A DNA stretch of 63,458 nt, filler included, from Globobulimina sp. (lineage: Eukaryota), in assembly GCA_003354225.1 (NCBI GenBank). It is 24 parts of 24 records of this genome, joined end to end, with 100 filler letters (N's around TTAATTAATTAA, not from the genome) between each part and the next. Parts side by side here need not be neighbours in the genome. Positions count along the whole stretch, not along the records: positions 29,141 to 31,689 come from PIVH01006053.1; 23 more parts are not named here. One strand, written 5' to 3'. A program made the position numbers and the translations under genes. How positions within the stretch are numbered: the stretch's first letter is position 1; the number at the start of each line of letters is the position of its first letter. Below are positions 13,618 through 31,791 of this stretch, in pieces. The notes below the pieces were generated by a model. The model ran no database searches and was not told the DNA's origin. It worked only from the letters and a program-made list of their open reading frames with translations.

Positions 13618-15740
13618 TTATTCAATATTATATGTCTCGTCATCACCTTCCATTAATATGAAGGAATTTACCTCCCGAAATGTTTGAATTTCTTGTTGAA
13701 GCTGCAAATTTGGAAAAGTATACAAGGTATGAGCATCTTTTTTTGTTTTGGGTGATTTTTTATATTTTTTTAAATATTCTTCAATCGCAGCTTTTTCATA
13801 GGTATATCCATCAAATGCCATCACGGGCTCAGTCATTAAATTCTTGGTAATTGGACACATAAATTGCGATGGAATTATATTATTATCTTGCGAAGTAACT
13901 GACGCATCAGAGGTATTTGAATGTGATCGAAGCCTTTCTTCTTTTCTTGAACCATTGGCTGTAATGCTAGCACAATTTGCTATGTTTGACCTATTAATGG
14001 GCGCTGGATATTTTGTTCGTAATATACGAATATGATCAAATATTTGACATCGTAATTGATAATTTGTAAAACCAACACAATACAAATCATTCTTACTAAA
14101 TTCCACCAATTGTAGGCCACAAATTCCTTGCTTGACAATATTTAATTCAATCACATTTAAATCAATCTCATTATTGAATAAATGGCCATTTATGTTAAAC
14201 CAATGCATCTTAAATTTAATGAATGCCATTATATCTTTTCCATTCCATTCAATCCAATTATTTTCAAAATTATTCCATTTATCGCGTATATATTTATTCA
14301 ATCTCGTAATATTTTCATTATTTACGTTGACAAAGTGGTTATATTTCTCAATTAATATTTTGCACTCTTTGCTCATGGCTCCAAACACCGCACTCTCAAT
14401 CACCATGGCATTCAATTCATTGTCTTTGTTACATTTCTTTTTATTTAACGCATTCTCTTCGTCAATCTTGTGATTGCATTGCGATACTTTCTCACTTAAT
14501 ACCTTTTGCAATTCCATTCGCTCATTCTTTACATCATTGTATTTCTTCAATAGATTTATATATCCATTCTTGGCTTGGCTTGATTCTAATTGCCATTCTT
14601 CGATCCGCTGCAAAAATTGTGTCTGTTGCGCCAATAAAATGGACACTTTCTTGGTTACCTGTTCCAATCTATTTTCTTGTTTATCCATAATCAATCGACA
14701 TTTGCTATACTCTGACAACAAATGGTGTTCCTCTTTCTTTTCTTCTTTTAATATGTTAATATTACAATTATTATCCATCACCACTCTGTTTAAGGCCACT
14801 GTGGTGATATCCCATTCTTTTAATATTTTGCTATGTTCTTTTAATATTTTCTCGCTCTCATCATTCATTCTCTTGATTTTGTCCCTTATTCCAACTTCTT
14901 TCTCCTTGCTCACAATCACTTTATTGCAGATATATTGTGTCTGTGATTGCAATTTTTTATTTTGCTCTTTATGCTCATACTCAATGCGTTTATGTTTTGC
15001 TTTTAATGAATCTCGCTCTCGGATGCAATGCCACCATTTCTCGCCATTAATACTGACCGATACTAAATCAATACGACAAGAAATGGCAATGCCTTGATTC
15101 TTATTTAAATAATTTAAAGTATTATTGTTGAATGCGGAGGATATTCCAAAATATACTTCTTGTTTTTTATTGTAGTACGTATGGAGGAACTCATTGGATT
15201 GGTATTGAATGTCCTGACTTTCGAATTGCATTTTTACTTTCATATTGCGGATGTGATAGGCACTGTTATCTGGGAATTCTAATAATTTTAAATATAATGA
15301 CACCATGCCGCTATTTGCGTATTTATCACCGGAGGGATAACATTGTAAACACCATTTTGAGCGATGTAATGGGAAAGAAGTAGAATCAAACGATTGTTTT
15401 GTAGATGATGAGGGTGTCGATGCTGATGCGGAGGCTGAGGACCATAAACGTATCATATTTGGATCAATATACCATACGACATTATGCGATGTTTTATTGA
15501 TTTTTTCTTTGTCAGATATTATTTCGCCATCAGATGTATAGGAGCTAATGGATGAGGATGAGCCGCCAGATATATTTGGCATAGTTACAATGGAAACTAA
15601 TAATACCTTTTTCATACAACATCGAATACTTAAAATTTTCTTTTGCAAATTGATTAATAGATTTCGTTTAAATGTCTCTGGGTAACCCCAGGATGAATGT
15701 TTTTTATTAAAAATATTTGTCAATTCTGATCCATATTCGT
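13618..15740 (-). CDS. MATH + coiled coil + SAM-like + U-box E3 ubiquitin ligase, 5'-truncated
   Basis: KWCLQCYPSGD..MVSLYLKL (MATH); WIEWNGKDIMAFI..GICGLQLVEFSKNDL..GF (SAM-like); IPSQFMCPITKNLMTEPVMAFDGYTYEKAAIEEYL..SPKT..PNLQL (U-box). Confidence 0.9.
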
Positions 15741-15913
15741 CTGTTTGTGCACAAATATATATATATTGTATTTATTTGCATATGTTGTGTATAGANNNNN
15801 NNNNNNNNNNNNNNNNNNNNNNNNNNNNNNNNNNNNNNNTTAATTAATTAANNNNNNNNNNNNNNNNNNNNNNNNNNNNNNNNNNNNNNNNNNNNGTTTT
15901 GATAATTATATTG

Positions 15914-18545: not shown

Positions 18546-20168
18546 ACAGAAGCAACTCAGTTGGTATTTGCTTCGGAAAGAAATGGAATGTTGACATACA
18601 ACATAAATCAAGAAGCACTCAATATAATATCGTCGAATTTTGCTTATTCAAATCAACCATTTGAAGTAATATCAGCAATCGGCCAGGCCAGAAAAGGCAA
18701 ATCGTATACAATGAGCAAAATAATGCAGAAACTATGTCTTCGACCAGTGTCATTTATGCCTTTTAAATCATCAGATTTTAATAAACCATTCACTGACGGA
18801 ATATGGATGTATTTATTAAGAGATTGTACATCCACATCGAAAGGCTATTTGTCGAAAATAGAAACGAAATCATATCCGTGCAGTGAGGACAATAAACCGT
18901 ATCTTTTGTTGGATATTCAAGGATCATACACAGAGTCAGACGATGAAGCTATGCGATATGCGTCGATTGTTGCATTGATATCAACTCAAACCTATTTATT
19001 GCTGCATCAAAAACTATATAAACATGACATAGATCAAATTCGTTACATTTCCAGTTTTATTCACGAAATGAATGAAGAAAAAATAAGCTTTGCTATGAGT
19101 GATATTAATTTAGGTGCAATCATTCGGGAACCATTTAAAAATAAATTCGATAATGTTGAGAATGCAGTAAATGATGACTTATCTCACTATTTACATTATT
19201 TCCATGGTTTTGCTCAATTTGCAGTTGTTAAATCTATGCCGCATTATCGTCAACATTCAGAATATAGCAAATCGATGGAAGATATCGCCCAATATATCGT
19301 ATCAATGAGTAATGAGAATAAAAAAGCGTCGAGAATGAACTTTGTAACGTACAATTTTGGTAAATTCAAAACATTATTAACGGAAATAATTAATCAATTT
19401 AATAACAACCAAAATATATCCAGAATTTGCGTTGTTTGTATTTTTAAACGTATTGTTGAATGGGAACCGTTTACAGATTGGAGCAAATGTAGCAAAAATT
19501 GTGGTGCTGGAATTCAAAAAAGAAGCAGGAAATGTAACAGCGAGAATGCTGAAGATTGTGAAAGATTTATTGGTGGAAAAGCGGTCGAAACAGCACCATG
19601 TAATACATTTAAATGTGAATGGAAAGCATGGGGTGAATGGTCAAAATGTAACAGAGTATGTTTGGGAGGAAAACAAGTGAGGAAAAGAGAATGCGTTACA
19701 AAGGATATTCAGGATTGTCTTTCTGTGGTAGGTGGAAGTAATAAGGAAAGCAGAACATGTAATACACAAAAATGTAAATGGATGCCGGATAAAATAGGAA
19801 AATGTAGTGTCGAATGTAATGGCGGCACGCAAATTATTTATAAAAAATGTGAGAGTGGACATGATGTTGACTGTGAAGGAGATAATCAATATAATCGAGC
19901 ATGCAATGCACATAAATGCAAATGGATAGAAACAACAAAAGGGCGTTGTAGTGTGCTATGTGGTTCTGGCGATGCAATAGTACGTAGAAAGTGTGAAAGT
20001 GGAGATGAGCATGATTGTGATGGACAGAGTAAATATTTTGAGTCATGTTTTAATTTGGTAGGATGTCTCTGGTACTTAATCTATGCTGTTTTTGTAGTGT
20101 TTGTGGTTGCGTGCGGATGTGCTGTGTTATATGAAGCAATAATCAAAAATCAGCCTCGTCAATATTAA
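18546..20168 (+). CDS. GBP/atlastin-like GTPase domain + four TSP1 repeats + C-terminal TM, 5'-truncated
   Basis: VISAIGQARKGKSY (G1), PFTDGIWMY (G2), LLLDIQGS (G3); WSKCSKNCGAGIQKRSRKC, WGEWSKCNRVCLGGKQVRKREC and two further CS..C..G repeats; hydrophobic LWYLIYAVFVVFVVACGCAVLY. Confidence 0.85.
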   Translation, partial: TEATQLVFASERNGMLTYNINQEALNIISSNFAYSNQPFEVISAIGQARKGKSYTMSKIMQKLCLRPVSFMPFKSSDFNKPFTDGIWMYLLRDCTSTSKGYLSKIETKSYPCSEDNKPYLLLDIQGSYTESDDEAMRYASIVALISTQTYLLLHQKLYKHDIDQIRYISSFIHEMNEEKISFAMSDINLGAIIREPFKNKFDNVENAVNDDLSHYLHYFHGFAQFAVVKSMPHYRQHSEYSKSMEDIAQYIVSMSNENKKASRMNFVTYNFGKFKTLLTEIINQFNNNQNISRICVVCIFKRIVEWEPFTDWSKCSKNCGAGIQKRSRKCNSENAEDCERFIGGKAVETAPCNTFKCEWKAWGEWSKCNRVCLGGKQVRKRECVTKDIQDCLSVVGGSNKESRTCNTQKCKWMPDKIGKCSVECNGGTQIIYKKCESGHDVDCEGDNQYNRACNAHKCKWIETTKGRCSVLCGSGDAIVRRKCESGDEHDCDGQSKYFESCFNLVGCLWYLIYAVFVVFVVACGCAVLYEAIIKNQPRQY

Positions 20169-23842: not shown

Positions 23843-26391
23843 AAATTGGTTTCATTCGATTTCATATTTTTAATTGCTTTGGTTTGCATTTTATTATGTG
23901 ATATATTTAATTCTTTATAAAATTGTTTTTGCGATATTCTGTACCCTCTGTTACATAGTAACTCCTGTTTTAAATTGAGATATAACGGTATTTCTGCATC
24001 ATATTCAACAAAAACGCCATGATGATACACTGGGAAGCGATTATATTTTTTGATTGTCGCTGCATCTTTCTTCAGCATATTCATTTTGAGCTCATTGATA
24101 TCATTTATGTGTAGCATTTGTGAATGAATGCGCGAACAATAAGATATATAAACATAATCCCTCCAATCATCACATTTAAAAAATTTCTGTTTCGATTTCA
24201 ATGATTTATACTGATCTTTCTCTCGCGTCGCGCGTATAAAATGAATGCAATCTCTGGCGGTGTTATTGCAATTAATATATGGCTGATTAGTTAAAATCTC
24301 ATTGTGTGATTCTTGGAAAATGTGATCAATATCTTTTACAAATCGTAGTGGATCATAACCATCCAATTCATATAAAAACTTTTTAATTTCATACGGATAT
24401 CGGTTATAATCGGATAGTTTGTGATAATGATCCAAAATACAACATATTCTTTTCATTGCTCCACAACATAAAACATTGTCGGTTATAATGGTATAAACAT
24501 CTTTTAATATCAACAGCAATTTTTTAACCTTTATTCGTCCAATAAACTCTTTAATTAAATTGGCAAACTCGCGGCTGTTTTTTATCATTAAAAAGGCATT
24601 TCCACTGATTTTCGCACTTTCGACCCAATTTAAAATATCCTGAATAATATCTTGCAGCGACGTGGCATATTTATATTTATTGTTGACCATATTACGAATT
24701 ATTACCGTTTCTATCATTTTTTTCATATCTGACACATTATATTGCCCCGCATGCACTTGCTTGCAATGGATTTGTGCATCACCGTTCATTTTATAATTGC
24801 ATTTTGCGTTTTTAATTCTATTCCAGTATTTTACGAGTGTTGGTGGTAAATTTAAAGGTTTATAATAAATGCTATCTCGTTTCTGATTGATACTAAATAC
24901 TTTTTCATTGACATTTAATTTATTTCTGCCCCTTTTAGCACCACACAATCCACATTCTGATAATTGTGTATATAATCTCCAAAGACCACCGACCATCATC
25001 TTCCTGTTCATAAAATGGCAGTCATTGCATTTCCATGGCTTTATATATTCCATATCATTTAACAATTTCTCGAATAAATAATTGCATAATTTTACTTTTG
25101 TTTCATTGTCAAGCACTTTAATTGATTTCGCAACATTCATAAAATCATCTTTTGTCACATTTTTATCTGATATCGGACCATAAAACTGCAGCAATTGTTG
25201 CTTAAATTTAGTCGCAAACACAGTTTTTTGATCTCTTATTTGCATCAAATAATTTAATCCAATCGCATTTCCATTTTTATTCAATTCATTCAAAAATAAT
25301 CCGATCACACAATTCATTATTTTTCTGTCTTTATTAATGCAATATATTTCATCTACGTTCTCCGTTTTTATTTTACTAAAAATATTAACCGCAATGGCTT
25401 GGGTAATACCAATCTGCCTCAATTTGAAAATAAAATCTTTCTGAACCACAAGTTTCCCCACTTTCAAATCCAACTCTTTTAACTTTTTCTTAAACAATGC
25501 TTTTAATATTTCATTTTTATAGTAATGATTAATAAAATCAAATCCAATGTGGTGCAACGCATCGACAATCAAATCCGGTATCTCATGTTGGCAGCAATTG
25601 GATAGCGTGCTATCGATGGGCGGCGAATAATTCTCATCGATATTTGGCCGAGTCATATGTTTTAAGGTTGTACAAATATATTCAGCTCTCATTTCTTGTG
25701 TTTTCATCTCTATAATATCTGGAATTGGAAATTTTTCATCAAAACTAGCCAACGCACAGTCAGACAGGTTCCCGTTTAAACGTTGCCGCACTAAATCCGG
25801 GTCATAGTTTGCTTTATTACACCACAGTTTAAATTTCCCCTCGGCTTTATTGTCACACTCATAATATGGCGCATTGTGCTGTTGATAGTAATATGAGAGA
25901 TTCTTGTCGATGGTGTCTATAATGTTTGTAATGTACACAACATTTTTGTTGCAGTCTCTAAAATAAATTAGATTGGGTAGCAATGTGCGGAGGTTTTCAA
26001 TTTTGACACTATACTGTTTGTTTGAACTCCTTTGTTGAATGAAAAACGTTTTTAACGAATAAGTCATGTATGGGATCTCCAAAGGTAAGCATTCCAATGA
26101 TATGAAATCTTTCTTGTTGCACCAATTTAATAACAAATCCACCGCGTAAGTTATTTCCACCATGGATTTGGATGCCGGGAAATAATGATCAATGACATCG
26201 CGTTTTTTATATATTAATTTGCTTCGACTGTTTGCGTTGTTGCTGTTTATATCTTTGCAAATATTGATTAGTTTTAGTAGCGTTTTTTGCATTTGATTGG
26301 ATTTTTGATACAAATACTTTAAATTTGAGAAATGATAATCGAATATAGTTTGTTGTAATATCTTCTCCAAATACACCAACGCAGCCATAAA
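23843..26391 (-). CDS. Large lineage-specific protein, partial, with a RanBP2-like Zn finger; shares a module with 29141-31099
   Basis: ORF spans the whole contig. WKCNDCHFMN...CGLCG; CxxxxRIxxILxHYH..LxxY..D..H and YxNLKxEL..N....S.KQF blocks are shared with the ART-like protein. Confidence 0.8.
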
Positions 26392-26491: not shown

Positions 26492-29040
26492 AACACATAA
26501 AACTGTTTCAATGACAATTTGCGTGTATTAAACATACACATTGCCAATGAATCACAGTGTTTCTTGCTAAATAATAAATTATTATCGATGTTAAATCCCA
26601 AGGTCTCAAACACTTTGATATAATCATCGTATTCCGCTTTTTTTGTCATTTTCTCGTCTTGTTCATCAAAGGATAGTTGACAGATATCGTCAATATAAAA
26701 ACAGCATAATTCCATCAATAATCGATAGAAATACGCAGTGGTAAAATTATCAAATGTCATTTTCTTGGTCGTATCTCCGCGATATTGAATACAGCCAAAT
26801 TTATCAAATAAACCACTCAAAAACGATGATGAGTTACATATTTTTATCATCATTAAACTATCATTAATATCATCCTTTTCTTCGTCATTACTAAATATTA
26901 ACATATTGTTCTTTGACATTGTTAAAAAATCCTCTTTCTGTAAATATTTTTCTTGATTGCTGTCAATTATCGAATGTAAATCATATTTATATCTTAATAA
27001 TATATATTCAGACATGGAGTATAAATAAATATGTTGCAACACTGTGACCATTTCATCATAATCAATGACTCCGGATCTATTTACATCCACTTTGTAATAA
27101 CACAACTTTAACATCTTCTCTTCAGAACGGATTAAAGCATCATTTAACCCAAAATTCATATTTGTGACAAACTCAGATAACTCTTGCAATGTTATTCCAT
27201 CTTCGTCATTATAACTCGGCACACATTGTTTAAATTGTTTCTTTATTGATGTCTCGAAATAGGAATAATACCAAATATTATATACAATCCGTTTGAACAT
27301 CTCCCAATTAATTACATCCGTGTCACCATCCATTATTTGTGCAGTTATCCACCATTTATAAATCTCTTTATTCTCCGCAAACCCATGAATGTCCCATTTA
27401 TATTTCTCACTCATTTCAATAATATCTTCCACTGAAACCGAGTCATATTTATTAAATTCTTTCTGCAATGCATTCTCTATCAACTTCTCATAATTAATAT
27501 TACCTAAATCGATCACAATATCAACAGCAATGTCTTCCTTTGTTTCTTCTTCGTGCTGCTTATTCCAATCATCCTTAAATATTTTCTCATAGTTCACCAT
27601 ATCCTCCAAATGGAAATTAATGCATTCCCGAATACAAACACTATACTTATCCCATTCAATCATGCCGCCATTGTGGCGATCATTATTTTTAAACAATTTC
27701 AGCAACGCAGTGGTCCCATTCTTATACTTCAAATGTTTAAAATTATCGTCACCTCTCGTACTCGGCAAGTTTGCTTTTATCGCTTCAAACGAATTCACAA
27801 ATTGCTCAAACGACATCAATCCCTGACAGTGACTATCGAATATACCCCGCACAGTTTGGTCCGATATGCCACGAAAATACTGCTGCAACATTATCTGTAC
27901 AAACATCCTGAAATCAGTGTGATCCCCGTCACCATTCGCTGCAGTTATCTTATTATACACACCACGCAAAGTCTGGATGTCGCCATAGGGCTTATTCGTA
28001 ATCCCCAAATACTCCGTCACATTGGCCGTCTCTGTGCAATTTAATAAACCATCGTTGTCCTCGTCCATTAACTTAAAACTCTGCATTAGAATATGCCAAC
28101 ACAACGACAACAAACTGCCAACATAATGTACTGGACTGTTCTGCGCATAATCGCTGATCTCGTGACTTAACTCAACCTCACCAAATGCAAATGGCTGCGC
28201 TGTCAATAAACCAGACTTAAAATGCACAAAATCACACACCATCCCTACACCCTCCTCGCTATCACTGTCGCTGTCACTGTCCGTCCCACCACTGCTATTA
28301 TCATGAACCAGTAAATTAATTTGCGAATAATCATCTTCCAGCGCCTTGACACCCGCATCCTCTGCCTTGTCAAACATGGAATTGTAATGTTTCTCAGTCA
28401 TGTTCACATTCAATATCTCCAATGCATTGCGCATCTCTTCCTTATCCAGCGCGCCATTAAAGTCATCGTCACATTGCCCGAAAGTTAGTCGCAACTTCCG
28501 GTCCAAAATCGAGTTTAAAAACTGTACGCAGAGCGCATACAAAAACTCATCGATATCCAATCCATTATTCCCATCGGTATCCGCATAATAAAATATCGCA
28601 CGGAGCTCATATTCAGCCGTATCGTCCAATTCTAACACCTTCAGCGCTTCAAAGAAGCCTTCAAACGTAATACAGCCAAACTTATCAAAATCATACTCCT
28701 CATAAAACAGCTGAATACCAAATGAATATTCAGAGTGATTGATGCCCATATTCTTCGAATTTATCTTTGCTAATTTTATTTTAGCTTTGCGTTCCTCGCG
28801 TAATCTGTCCTCTTGCTCTTGTTTGTTCTCCATGCGGTCCTTCTTAGCCTCAAACTCTTCATCTTCGTATTCTTCCTCGTTGATTATGAGAATTCCGCCG
28901 CTTTTGATCACCGGTAACATTGTGCTTGTACTGACTAAATCGCCGGGAATATTAATATTATTCGCAAGTAATAGCTGCTGCAAACGGATTATTTCGTCAT
29001 TCAATATTTGTATGTCAGTGTCTTCGATATTTGCTGAATT
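26492..29040 (-). CDS. Large multi-EF-hand protein, partial
   Basis: ORF spans the contig. Loops DTDGNNGLDIDE, DDDFNGALDKEE, DEDNDGLLNCTE, DRHNGGMIEWDK and DVNRSGVIDYDE, plus degenerate ones. Confidence 0.9.
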
Positions 29041-29140
29041 NNNNNNNNNNNNNNNNNNNNNNNNNNNNNNNNNNNNNNNNNNNNTTAATTAATTAANNNN
29101 NNNNNNNNNNNNNNNNNNNNNNNNNNNNNNNNNNNNNNNN

Positions 29141-31099
29141 CGACTCGTCCAACGTAATGCAGGGCAAAATCTGTCCGGTTTGAATATTGCCGTTATACAA
29201 TTGAATATGTCTAACATTGGGAAATAACAGCAATAAGCGATCAATATATATCCACCCATCATTCTGTATGAACAGCGAATGTAATCTCAAAAAGCCATAT
29301 TGATTGCCGTCATTTGGCGGTCTGTTCATTCCCATATAATATCCATCCTCCTCCATATCCTCCTCATCGTCCATCAACTCGTACGAGTCAATGATCATTA
29401 ACCACACATTTATCTGAATATTCTCAATGCTTTGCCGGAAACTCTCAAACAACGACAATATATATTTTGGAATCCGACTCAATTTCTTGTCCAAAATCTG
29501 CGCCAAGAACTTGGGGATTAACGGAGTTAAGATATTGTAATTCAACTCGGTCCCAATCACCATCGATTGCAACACGTTGAACGCGTTCAGATATTGCGAG
29601 TAATTGTGGTATAATCGCGGGTATAAAATGGATTTAAACGACAGCATGATGTTTAAAAATAACTTCTCAGACTCGATGCCGTAGTCACTGAACCAGGCAC
29701 AATCCATAAAATGTTGGTCCCCGCAATATTCCACATCCTTCTTCAACTGCAAAATCAGGCCATCGTCGGGACAGTACACATTGCACACACTCAACGACGA
29801 AGTCGTGCTGGTCGGATAATAAAAATACACATGAAACTCGTCGAAATAGATCGGTTTCTCCAGACAATGATAGAAAGTCATCTGGAAACCGTCGTGTTTG
29901 GCGATGTTGGTGCCATATAATCGGACCCCTTCGTACAATAAGCGGCAGATATGGGCGTATTCGCTGTGTCTGGCACGTAACATATGGTCCTCCTCCGCCA
30001 TGCTCTGTTTCTTGTACACAGAAACGACGTGTTTTCGTATAATATCATAATTGCAAAATATCAGCAATGCCAACATATGGTCGATAGTAATGGCCGCAGA
30101 CTCTGCGATTTTGATCTCTAAACAAGTCGGTTCGTTGTAGTTTTCCGCCAAATATTGACATTTTAACTTTCGACCTCGTCTGCAATTTTTGTAGGCAATG
30201 GCGCGTTTTATGCCATCTTCGAACTGCTTGGACGACATTTTACAGATTTTATTGAGCGTCAACTCTGATTTTAAGTTGTCGTATTTGTTGGCGATGAACC
30301 ATTTGTTCTCTGCGTAGGACCGCCAATATTTGAATTGATATCCAAACTCGATCTCATATCTGCGATTCTCTTTGCTTTCGCTGCCATCGTTGTGGCCGCT
30401 GACGAATTTGTTGTGATTCATTCTGTTCGTACCGCGAATGGCATGCAACAATTTGCTTTTCTTTCTGGTTATATTTACTATCAATTTCAATGGGTTGTCG
30501 ACTGCGTCATCCTTGGCGTTGTTGGTGTGGTTTATGATTTGTTTGCTTTCTTCGATTTGCGAGGTTGCTATCTGTAATATTTCGGTCTGATTCAATATGT
30601 ATCCGGCATCAAAGGATAATATTAAATGACAATAGATTTTATCCATGATTTTCTGGACCGACACTTCTTCGCTGCTGTTATAGCCGCCGTAATATTCACA
30701 GCGAATGTCGTTGTTCAGGCTGCAATGTTGGCGGTTGCGGTTATTTCGGGCAAATATTAATGACGTTGCTATGTCGTAGTGTATGTTTTTGGAGAGGTAG
30801 GAATGTACGGTATTGAATTGATTGAAATATTTGTTTAGTAGATGGTGGTAATCATCTAATAATTTGACGGTGGAGTAATTGCGTAATGTGCGCGAGAGAT
30901 AGGCGTACATTCCTATTCCTCGGTTGTCTATATAATTGATGCCATTTATGCCTGAATTCGACTCTATGAAATCGTGGTAATGTTCTAAGATTATGCGCAA
31001 TCTGTTGACGGCTGGACAGGCGCTTGCCTTCGTGTCCTTGTGTTTGGAGTTGCGGATTAGTTTCTTGTTGAACCATCTTGCGATATCTGGCTGTGCCAT
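29141..31099 (-). CDS. Large protein with ADP-ribosyltransferase (ARTC/exoenzyme-like) domain, 3'-truncated
   Basis: FYHCL ... PTSTTSSLSV..Y..DGLILQL ... WFSDYGIESEKLF follow the R-S-ExE order, with His in place of Arg. Confidence 0.65.
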
Positions 31100-31179
31100 G
31101 ACGCAAGTCAAGTGTTAGAAAAATAAGCAAGTTTGGAGTATCATAGTGTATACATTTTGCTAAAGTTTTCTTTTTTAAG

Positions 31180-31689
31180 ACTCTTGTGTTTTTCTTGTTG
31201 AGTGTGGCATTATCAACAACCCTAAATGACATTTCCGTCGATACAACTTTAATCGTAAATAATAACCCATATCAAGTGAATGGAGACATCAATATCCAAC
31301 AAGGCGTCACACTCACAATACCAAATGGTGTAGAAATTATATTGATGGATGAGTACACGGCATTATTGCCGGCTGCCAGTCTGTCACTCGCAATTACAAG
31401 GATCGTGCCTTAGTATTTGCACAAAACACGCACATTCACAGTCTAAATAATGACCGCAAAGGCGGCCTCACCTTCAGCGGCGCGACCGCAGGCGGCTCAT
31501 TCTGTAATGTAAAGTTTGAAGGATTGAATACGGCGATGCGCGCAACTTCTATGAACGAGGGATTATCCATCGATAACTGCGAATTCACAAATGTGAATGA
31601 TGTAATTCTCGGCGGTTCGGGCCCCAAACATACATTCAACGACACTTACTTTCATGACTTAGATACTGTCGTCAGTGAAGGGGGCTGCA
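31180..31689 (+). pseudogene. Secreted parallel beta-helix-type protein N-terminus with a frameshift near 31358
   Basis: Signal-like leader, then DISVDTTLIVNNNPYQVNGDINIQQGVTLTIPNGVEI; continues in another frame as GIIAGC...GSFCNVKFEGL..IDNCEF with no intron signal. Confidence 0.55.
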
Positions 31690-31791
31690 NNNNNNNNNNN
31701 NNNNNNNNNNNNNNNNNNNNNNNNNNNNNNNNNTTAATTAATTAANNNNNNNNNNNNNNNNNNNNNNNNNNNNNNNNNNNNNNNNNNNNGC

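Follow-up and report, generated by a model that had tools for sequence, protein, structure and literature searches.

Most of the known cholera-toxin-like ADP-ribosyltransferases (ARTs) are toxins or effectors of bacteria, enzymes of phages, or members of a small set of vertebrate ecto-enzymes. The ecto-ARTs carry an N-terminal signal peptide and are secreted or anchored by glycosylphosphatidylinositol. Here, we describe an ART-like gene located on the minus strand at positions 29141–31099 of a 63,458-base stretch of DNA (the window) from Globobulimina sp. (GenBank assembly GCA_003354225.1). Its product is predicted to adopt the ART fold and combines a first-strand histidine with the S-T-S-type strand and the E-x-E loop of the cholera-type enzymes.

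In the excerpt of PMC7827354 used here, ARTs carry an Arg or His on the first core strand, for binding of nicotinamide adenine dinucleotide (NAD), and a Ser or Tyr on the second; NAD+ cleavage depends on a catalytic Glu located on the fifth strand. Enzymes of the R-S-E class possess an eight-residue ARTT loop (X-X-aromatic-X-X-E/Q-X-E), in which the sixth residue sets the target residue, and the H-Y-E class is described there without this loop (PMC7827354). The mono-ART of the SidE/SdeA enzymes, which acts on ubiquitin, is also of the R-S-E type and combines an alpha-helical lobe with an ARTT loop of the E-x-E form (PMC7827354, same excerpt). The ART-like domain of LRRC9 lies between leucine-rich repeat (LRR) domains and, according to the abstract of PMC7955679, has no clearly detectable classical site, its members being likely pseudoenzymes.

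The features of the Globobulimina gene are as follows, all in the frame of the same open reading frame (ORF):

29141..31099, minus strand: ART-like coding sequence, 653 codons in the standard code, with its ATG at 31099, open at the contig edge
30362..31099, minus strand: N-terminal all-helical domain, residues 1–246, from the predicted secondary structure (predicted local distance difference test, pLDDT, mostly >80); part of the family core
29597..30361, minus strand: ADP-ribosyltransferase-fold domain, residues 247–501, in which the helical lobe precedes the beta core, from the structure search
29861–29875, minus strand: motif FYHCL
29864..29872, minus strand: Y410-H411-C412 on the first core strand (predicted 409–413), the class-defining Arg/His position
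29798..29815, minus strand: P429-T-S431-T-T-S (PTSTTS), S-T-S-type motif on the predicted strand 430–433, from the model and the alignment
29744–29761, minus strand: motif GLILQL
29657–29695, minus strand: WFSDYGIESEKLF
29666..29689, minus strand: ARTT loop S471-D-Y473-G-I-E476-S-E478, leading into the predicted strand 478–481, assigned by fit to the loop pattern
29141..29596, minus strand: C-terminal region, residues 502–653, helices and short strands, cut by the contig end

An in-frame TAA was observed 15 nt upstream of the ATG, and no stop occurs from there through the first base of the contig; the span given in the original prediction corresponds exactly to this ORF, from the ATG to the first contig base. 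Its motifs (FYHCL, PTSTTS, GLILQL and WFSDYGIESEKLF) were likewise found in a single frame on the minus strand at 29657–29875, inside the interval of about 29650–30090 that it had named. Five close relatives, with 56–73% identity, are colinear with the protein and share its start methionine. The best of them is a protein of Bolivina argentea (73% identity), which points to a foraminifer as the most likely source; metagenome proteins are also among them, and the complete ones measure 741–773 aa. Measured against P0002, a relative of 741 aa, the protein lacks about 89 residues at its C-terminus because the contig ends.

The ORF is overlain by contigs from public runs of four different studies, and those of runs X5, X6 and X7 extend past 29141. 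Among the run contigs, only two indels were found within the ORF, each of 3 bases. In the 40 substitutions listed of 156, the third codon position was changed in 31 cases, the first in 9 and the second in none. The ORF is a real gene under purifying selection. The X5, X6 and X7 contigs span the ORF but not 31181–31520; this coverage was considered as a sign of transcription and not counted, since loose ends are present. That X6 and X7 are RNA runs is a guess, and no RNA source is listed for this stretch.

Predicted fold and active site

AlphaFold modelled the whole protein with a mean pLDDT of 87.4 and a predicted template modelling score (pTM) of 0.89 from a 56-sequence alignment, and residues 300–570 with a pLDDT of 93.3 from 73 sequences. 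Both models were compared with 48,161 representative chains using VIA-align, which is independent of Foldseek. With the whole model, rat ART2.2 (1gxy_A) ranked first, with a Z of 12.8 and a root-mean-square deviation (rmsd) of 3.8 Å over 192 of 223 residues, pairing model residues 247..501 with chain residues 4..206 at about 15% identity. It was followed by Tre1 (11.2), XopAI (11.0), HopU1 (10.7) and ExoS (9.3) and, lower, by a Listeria ART-ARH toxin (8.6), Vis (8.1) and the C3 enzymes (~8.0). The domain model again placed ART2.2 first (Z 11.3, rmsd 2.6 Å over 148 residues), ahead of Tre1 (10.3), a Listeria ART (10.2) and HopU1 (9.9). Enzymes of the R-S-E class occupied rows 1–20 with the whole model and rows 1–18 with the domain model. 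The first non-ART row of the whole-model search reached a Z of 5.3 and matched a helical hairpin only. The H-Y-E enzymes had lower scores with the domain model: diphtheria toxin (Z 6.7), PARP16 (5.2) and PARP4 (5.0).

Foldseek, run with the domain model, returned only R-S-E ARTs as its top matches, including Vis (E 2.4e-3), ART2.2 (4.4e-3), XopAI, HopU1, Plx2A, Certhrax, ExoS, VIP2, C3 and iota-like toxins. Searches of the ESM Atlas, taken as leads only, linked the domain alone to ‘Mono(ADP-ribosyl)transferase’ clusters at 0.93 and the whole protein to LRR_6 and ART+LRR clusters at 0.78–0.82. Among the viral structures of BFVD, ART-like matches appeared at E>=1.3e-3 only, with no close viral relative. 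Since the ART2.2 alignment spans model residues 247..501, the ART domain, including its helical lobe, was placed at about 247–501, and the models show this region with a predicted ART fold whose helical lobe is typical of ART2.2, HopU1 and SidE-type enzymes. On its predicted structure, the protein is thus an ART superfamily member by fold, as originally proposed. The fold is that of the cholera-toxin-like, R-S-E class, and the nearest structures are ART2.2, HopU1, XopAI and Tre1, not cholera toxin itself; LT and pertussis toxin were matched at a Z of 5.3–5.8.

In the model, strands were predicted at 409–413, 430–433, 448–454, 463–466, 478–481 and 484–493, with an extra strand at 423–426. The strand carrying Ser431 is followed by a helix at 436–442, and Glu478 opens the strand 478–481. 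Residues 471–478 (S-D-Y-G-I-E-S-E) fit the ARTT pattern exactly. From this topology, His411, Ser431 and Glu478 are predicted to converge on one pocket.

Conservation was counted in an alignment of the window protein (P0001) and 154 relatives to the family hidden Markov model (HMM; 155 sequences), of which 138 cover the site. In the first-strand column, His411 is present in 125 of the 138 and Arg in 3, flanked by Y410 in 112 and G412 in 121; the window protein itself has C412, where the family consensus reads F-Y-H-G. The three sequences with Arg support the equivalence of this column to the canonical Arg position. On the second strand, P429 is kept in 135, S431 in 136 and T432 in 115, and position 433 is Thr in 103 and Ser in 33. 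Both G447 and S471 are found in 134 sequences. Within the ARTT loop, position 473 is Phe in 80 and Tyr in 49 (aromatic in 132), E476 is kept in 135 and E478 in 137. Overall, 121 sequences display H-S-E-x-E, three R-S-E-x-E, two H-S-Q-x-E and 12 other states, so that natural variants at both class-defining positions (Arg; Q-x-E) exist inside one family. The site is conserved although the relatives share only 22–37% identity overall, which favours a working site rather than a relic. The His in place of Arg, the S-T-[ST] strand and the E-x-E loop of the original prediction are therefore confirmed and, as H-S-ExE, conserved in the family. Taken as a whole, the interpretation given there is borne out in its principal points.

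Several known systems can be compared with this arrangement. The vertebrate ecto-ARTs (ART2.2/RT6, PF01129, ARTC) represent the best structural match, including the N-terminal helical lobe, and share the S-T-S-type strand and the [E/Q]-x-E ARTT loop. The window protein differs from them in its His for Arg, in the absence of an N-terminal hydrophobic segment, and in its flanking 246-aa helical N-domain and C-terminal domain. Its N-terminus is hydrophilic, with a maximum Kyte-Doolittle 19-residue mean of 0.28 over the first 40 windows. No hydrophobic N-terminal segment was observed in it or in three orthologues (maxima of 0.03–0.28, by Kyte-Doolittle hydropathy and no dedicated predictor), and by this measure the window protein lacks the signal peptide of the ecto-ARTs, in line with what had been proposed. 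Because of the hydrophilic N-terminus, together with the cytosolic fusion domains of relatives described below, the protein is read as cytosolic, with which its sequence is consistent.

The bacterial toxins and effectors Tre1 (6drh), HopU1 (3u0j), XopAI (6k94), Vis (4xzj), ExoS (6gn0) and C3 (1r45, 1ojz) have the fold and the order of helical lobe and beta core in common with the window protein, and as a group the bacterial R-S-E toxins and effectors scored a Z of 9.3–11.2 with the whole model and 9.4–10.3 with the domain model. By the class definition, these six carry R-S-ExE or R-S-QxE. In contrast to them, the window protein is eukaryotic, apparently intracellular, endogenous and multi-domain, with no secretion or immunity partner evident and with His for Arg. 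SidE/SdeA was matched more weakly than ART2.2 (5zq2_A, Z 6.4–7.4; 9fgm_A, 5.7–6.1). Ubiquitin-system modules occur by fusion in many paralogues of the present family, not in the window protein, and Pfam scans of the family revealed none of the accessory domains of SidE.

With the H-Y-E class (diphtheria toxin, PARPs, Arr), the family shares a first-strand His followed by Gly (consensus Y-H-G) and the ART core. However, the window protein has a Ser, in S-T-T, instead of the Tyr, and an ARTT loop, which sets it outside that class. Like LRRC9, the window protein is eukaryotic and intracellular by prediction, and its ART-like domain came to light through remote methods only; it has an intact site and no LRR by Pfam, and is set apart from LRRC9 as its abstract describes it (PMC7955679). 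Among the features of the R-S-E class, the second-strand Ser, the ARTT loop and the Glu of strand 5 are present and the first-strand Arg is absent. The fold, the S-T-S strand and the E-x-E ARTT loop place the protein functionally with the R-S-E class. As the Arg is missing and the Pfam models miss the protein, it is filed as an H-S-ExE variant of this class, outside PF01129 and PF03496.

Relatives in Foraminifera and fused domains

An exhaustive phmmer search of 1.84 billion cluster representatives (clusters at 50% identity) identified 1,945 family proteins at E<=1e-3, of which 1,000 pass a cutoff of 1e-10 and 47 one of 1e-30. Organism names were looked up for 30 of the best 150. All 23 that could be named belong to Foraminifera (Bolivina argentea 11, Nonionella stella 11 and Ammonia sp. 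1), and the other 7 are metagenome proteins. The 1,945 clusters and the exclusively foraminiferal named members support a large, lineage-specific family dominated by Foraminifera, and thereby the lineage-specific family of the original prediction. A profile search with the family alignment in a further protein index yielded 6 proteins only. The family HMM revealed no second gene among all six-frame ORFs of the window, its one other match (E 1.7e-7) being a biased one to a low-complexity ORF; as 24 random 2.5-kb contigs, the window is uninformative on copy number. In the literature on ADP-ribosylation in foraminifera or Reticulomyxa, and on PITH, PUB or UBA combined with an ADP-ribosyltransferase, the family was not described in sources mostly excluding subscription journals, where an earlier mention is possible; the matches were instead a PARP survey and unrelated papers.

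The three-part core is kept in 115 of the 137 relatives of at least 450 aa. Among these long relatives, the N-terminal domain is present in 124 and the C-terminal part in 128, and 50 add at least 150 residues in front. In the structure search, only a helical hairpin of the N-terminal domain (166–222) was matched, at Z <=5.3. In the C-terminal region of the window protein, the acidic loop 573–596 (29312–29383) was modelled with low confidence, with pLDDT <50 at 573–580 and 582–596. The N-domain consensus of the family contains the sequence D-x-I-H-C-x3-H-S-F-D, and both His residues are kept in 43 of 56 relatives. In the window protein and its close orthologues, Tyr156 and Leu161 replace them (residues 153–164, ~30608–30643, minus strand). 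By sequence, this His pair, which may bind metal, is lost in the subfamily of the window protein.

Fused domains were examined by Pfam in 94 relatives, comprising 36 picked as long (E<=0.01) and the 58 remaining ones of at least 300 aa (E<=1e-5). The most frequent were PITH (18), PUB (14), PH (6), UBA (4) and ankyrin repeats (3). Rarer cases included zf-MYND and the RanBP zinc finger (2 each), as well as YEATS, TLDc, FKBP, cNMP-binding and phytochelatin synthase domains (1 each). At least one of PITH, PUB and UBA was found in 31 of the 94. PITH binds the proteasome, PUB binds p97 and UBA binds ubiquitin. No fused macrodomain or ARH eraser was detected among the 94. The varied PITH, PUB, UBA and PH modules in front of the same core suggest that different paralogues are sent to different cellular sites, often to the ubiquitin-proteasome-p97 machinery. 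One fusion of another kind is that of P0007 (1047 aa, an ENA protein), the second-best representative match to the window protein (34% identity, E 1.7e-87), in which a phytochelatin-synthase (papain-like) domain (PF05023, E 2.3e-29) lies in front of a complete family core.

Contig and remaining window

The window consists of 24 contigs joined in descending order of length, from 2,550 down to 2,547 bases. The sequence TTAATTAATTAA was found 23 times, evenly spaced at ~2,649 bases, against 0.11 expected by chance. Each copy lies within a 100-base spacer with a run of N on either side, for example at 29041–29140 and 31690–31789, and these spacers give stops in all six frames. The contig with the ART-like gene is delimited accordingly:

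29141..31689, strand not applicable: contig carrying the ART-like gene, 2549 bases, with artificial spacers on both sides

Adjacent genes were considered as context for the ART-like gene and rejected. As the window joins 24 unrelated contigs, neighbouring genes are uninformative, and 29141–31689 is the only true genomic context.

The remainder of this contig, 31147–31689 (plus strand), contains two overlapping ORF pieces in different frames (31147–31413 and 31353–31689), neither with a Pfam match. The piece at 31147–31413 opens with a hydrophobic, signal-like stretch. In a contig of run X1, small insertions cluster at 31357–31384, where the frame changes; an allelic difference, an error of assembly or a short intron might account for them.

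ORFs on the other contigs are eukaryotic by Pfam, with RhoGEF, CAP-Gly, EF-hand, TSP1 plus GBP domain, MATH plus U-box, and Cys-loop channel matches. Together with the Bolivina argentea relative, the RhoGEF, CAP-Gly, EF-hand and TSP1 matches bear out the eukaryotic half of the initial description as a large eukaryotic protein, but not its size, which is 653 aa here and 741–773 aa at full length. In two neighbouring contigs, 23845–26391 and 26494–29040 (both minus strand), an open frame of 849 codons takes up the whole length, without a Pfam match in the former and rich in EF-hands in the latter. Long intron-free ORFs seem common in the assembly. Furthermore, odd domain pairs were observed at 13621–15771 (minus strand) and 18546–20165 (plus strand), namely MATH with a U-box and a GBP GTPase domain with thrombospondin type 1 repeats.

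Predicted activity, alternatives and implications

From the model and the conserved site, we consider the protein to be probably, though with appreciable doubt, an active cytosolic mono-ADP-ribosyltransferase. His411 and Ser431 would hold NAD+ in the cleft that separates the helical lobe from the beta core, and Glu478 would promote cleavage of the nicotinamide-ribose bond. Tyr473 and Glu476 of the ARTT loop would position the acceptor, most likely a protein arginine side chain. Overall, cytosolic targets would become mono-ADP-ribosylated.

A number of observations weigh against this assignment. The canonical first-strand Arg is absent, and its loss could lower the affinity for NAD+ or alter the chemistry; the E-x-E motif alone does not fix arginine as the acceptor. 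The predicted meeting of His411, Ser431 and Glu478 in a pocket is drawn from strand order and motif fit, not from distances. The Foldseek E values are weak, at best 2.4e-3 for the domain and 0.19 for the whole 652-aa model. At the sequence level, Pfam assigned 0 families to the window protein at E<=10, and sequence and profile searches of the PDB with two family profiles found no ART, the best phmmer match being a PilC fragment (E 0.92). PF01129 was touched by one of 56 relatives scanned singly (E 0.0099), and PF03496 was absent among the 25 families listed of 59 in the Pfam scan of these relatives. The window protein does not score above the gathering threshold of either model. In addition, the 94 relatives scanned for fusions are a non-random sample, and the window protein and four full-length orthologues carry no PITH, PUB or UBA, which makes the ubiquitin link one of family analogy only.

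Two alternatives retain an active site and change its product. An NAD+ glycohydrolase would need no protein acceptor and would split NAD+ into ADP-ribose and nicotinamide, serving as a switch of the metabolic or death type. It would use the same fold and the same catalytic Glu, and Tne2 (6b12_D), a toxin of the NAD-glycohydrolase type, appears among the structure matches at a Z of 5.3; the lost first-strand Arg is also a departure of the site from the classical transferases. We regard it as unlikely, because the best structural matches are transferases, because hundreds of paralogues with varied targeting modules fit a target-directed modification better, and because the loop is kept (E476 in 135 and an aromatic residue at 473 in 132 of 138) to which the excerpt of PMC7827354 ascribes acceptor recognition. 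The enzyme might also transfer ADP-ribose to a nucleic acid or small molecule, as pierisin, ScARP and Arr do. The ARTT mechanism is common to protein- and DNA-targeting ARTs in the excerpted account (PMC7827354), and the weaker structural matches include Scabin (Z 6.5), pierisin-1 (4.8) and Arr (6.6). The fused modules are protein-binding ones (PITH, PUB, UBA, Ank, PH), not nucleic-acid-binding. The top matches ART2.2, Tre1, HopU1, XopAI and ExoS are protein-type ART toxins or effectors by name, and we take them to act on proteins. Furthermore, ScARP has a Gln at the sixth loop position in that same account (PMC7827354), where the present family has Glu in 135 of 138. A non-protein acceptor accordingly appears quite improbable.

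The remaining alternatives deny catalysis or the fold itself. The domain might have lost catalysis and serve as an ART-fold scaffold for the binding of NAD+, ADP-ribose or a partner protein. The same has been proposed for the ART-like family of LRRC9, which is conserved in eukaryotes and predicted to be a pseudo-ART (PMC7955679, abstract). The class-defining Arg is missing, and the protein escapes every sequence model of active ARTs. Against this stands the retention of Glu478 in 137, the first Glu in 135, Ser in 136 and His in 125 of the 138 sequences at 22–37% identity, which is unexpected for a dead site, and we give the scaffold little chance. A chance resemblance of motifs in a domain unrelated to ARTs would agree with the lack of significant sequence similarity to any ART. 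It is very hard to reconcile with a search of 48,161 chains in which ARTs fill the top 20 rows (whole model) and 18 rows (domain model), with ART2.2 covered over 192 of 223 residues and the next non-ART rows of the whole-model search at Z <=5.3, or with motifs on the expected strands in the expected order, and we consider it highly improbable.

Returning to the active mono-ADP-ribosyltransferase, a broader and speculative reading, which we hold to be rather unlikely as a whole, can be drawn by analogy from the fusions in paralogues only. Foraminifera may possess an endogenous, massively diversified ADP-ribosylation system aimed at the ubiquitin-proteasome-p97 machinery. In such a system, PITH, PUB or UBA would dock the cytosolic H-S-ExE transferases, hundreds in number, which would modify ubiquitin, p97, proteasome subunits or their clients. 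They would be a host-side counterpart of the bacterial effectors SidE and CteC, possibly serving the control of proteostasis or the handling of symbionts and prey in cells that are single and giant, and the His-for-Arg exchange would represent a third catalytic flavour between R-S-E and H-Y-E. Whether within this scheme or outside it, a role in signalling or defence would be an inference.

The occurrence of a cholera-toxin-like fold as a very large, apparently intracellular family in one protist lineage departs from the known distribution of these enzymes. Its hybrid triad joins the His of PARPs and diphtheria toxin to the S-T-S strand and E-x-E ARTT loop of the cholera type, a combination that no Pfam model captures, and about a third of the scanned members are fused to proteasome-, p97- or ubiquitin-binding modules. 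If active, these proteins would widen the chemistry of the class and show how His can replace the first-strand Arg. They would also offer a testable, eukaryote-encoded crosstalk of ADP-ribosylation and ubiquitin, and foraminiferal biology would gain a large signalling or conflict family that has so far gone unannotated.

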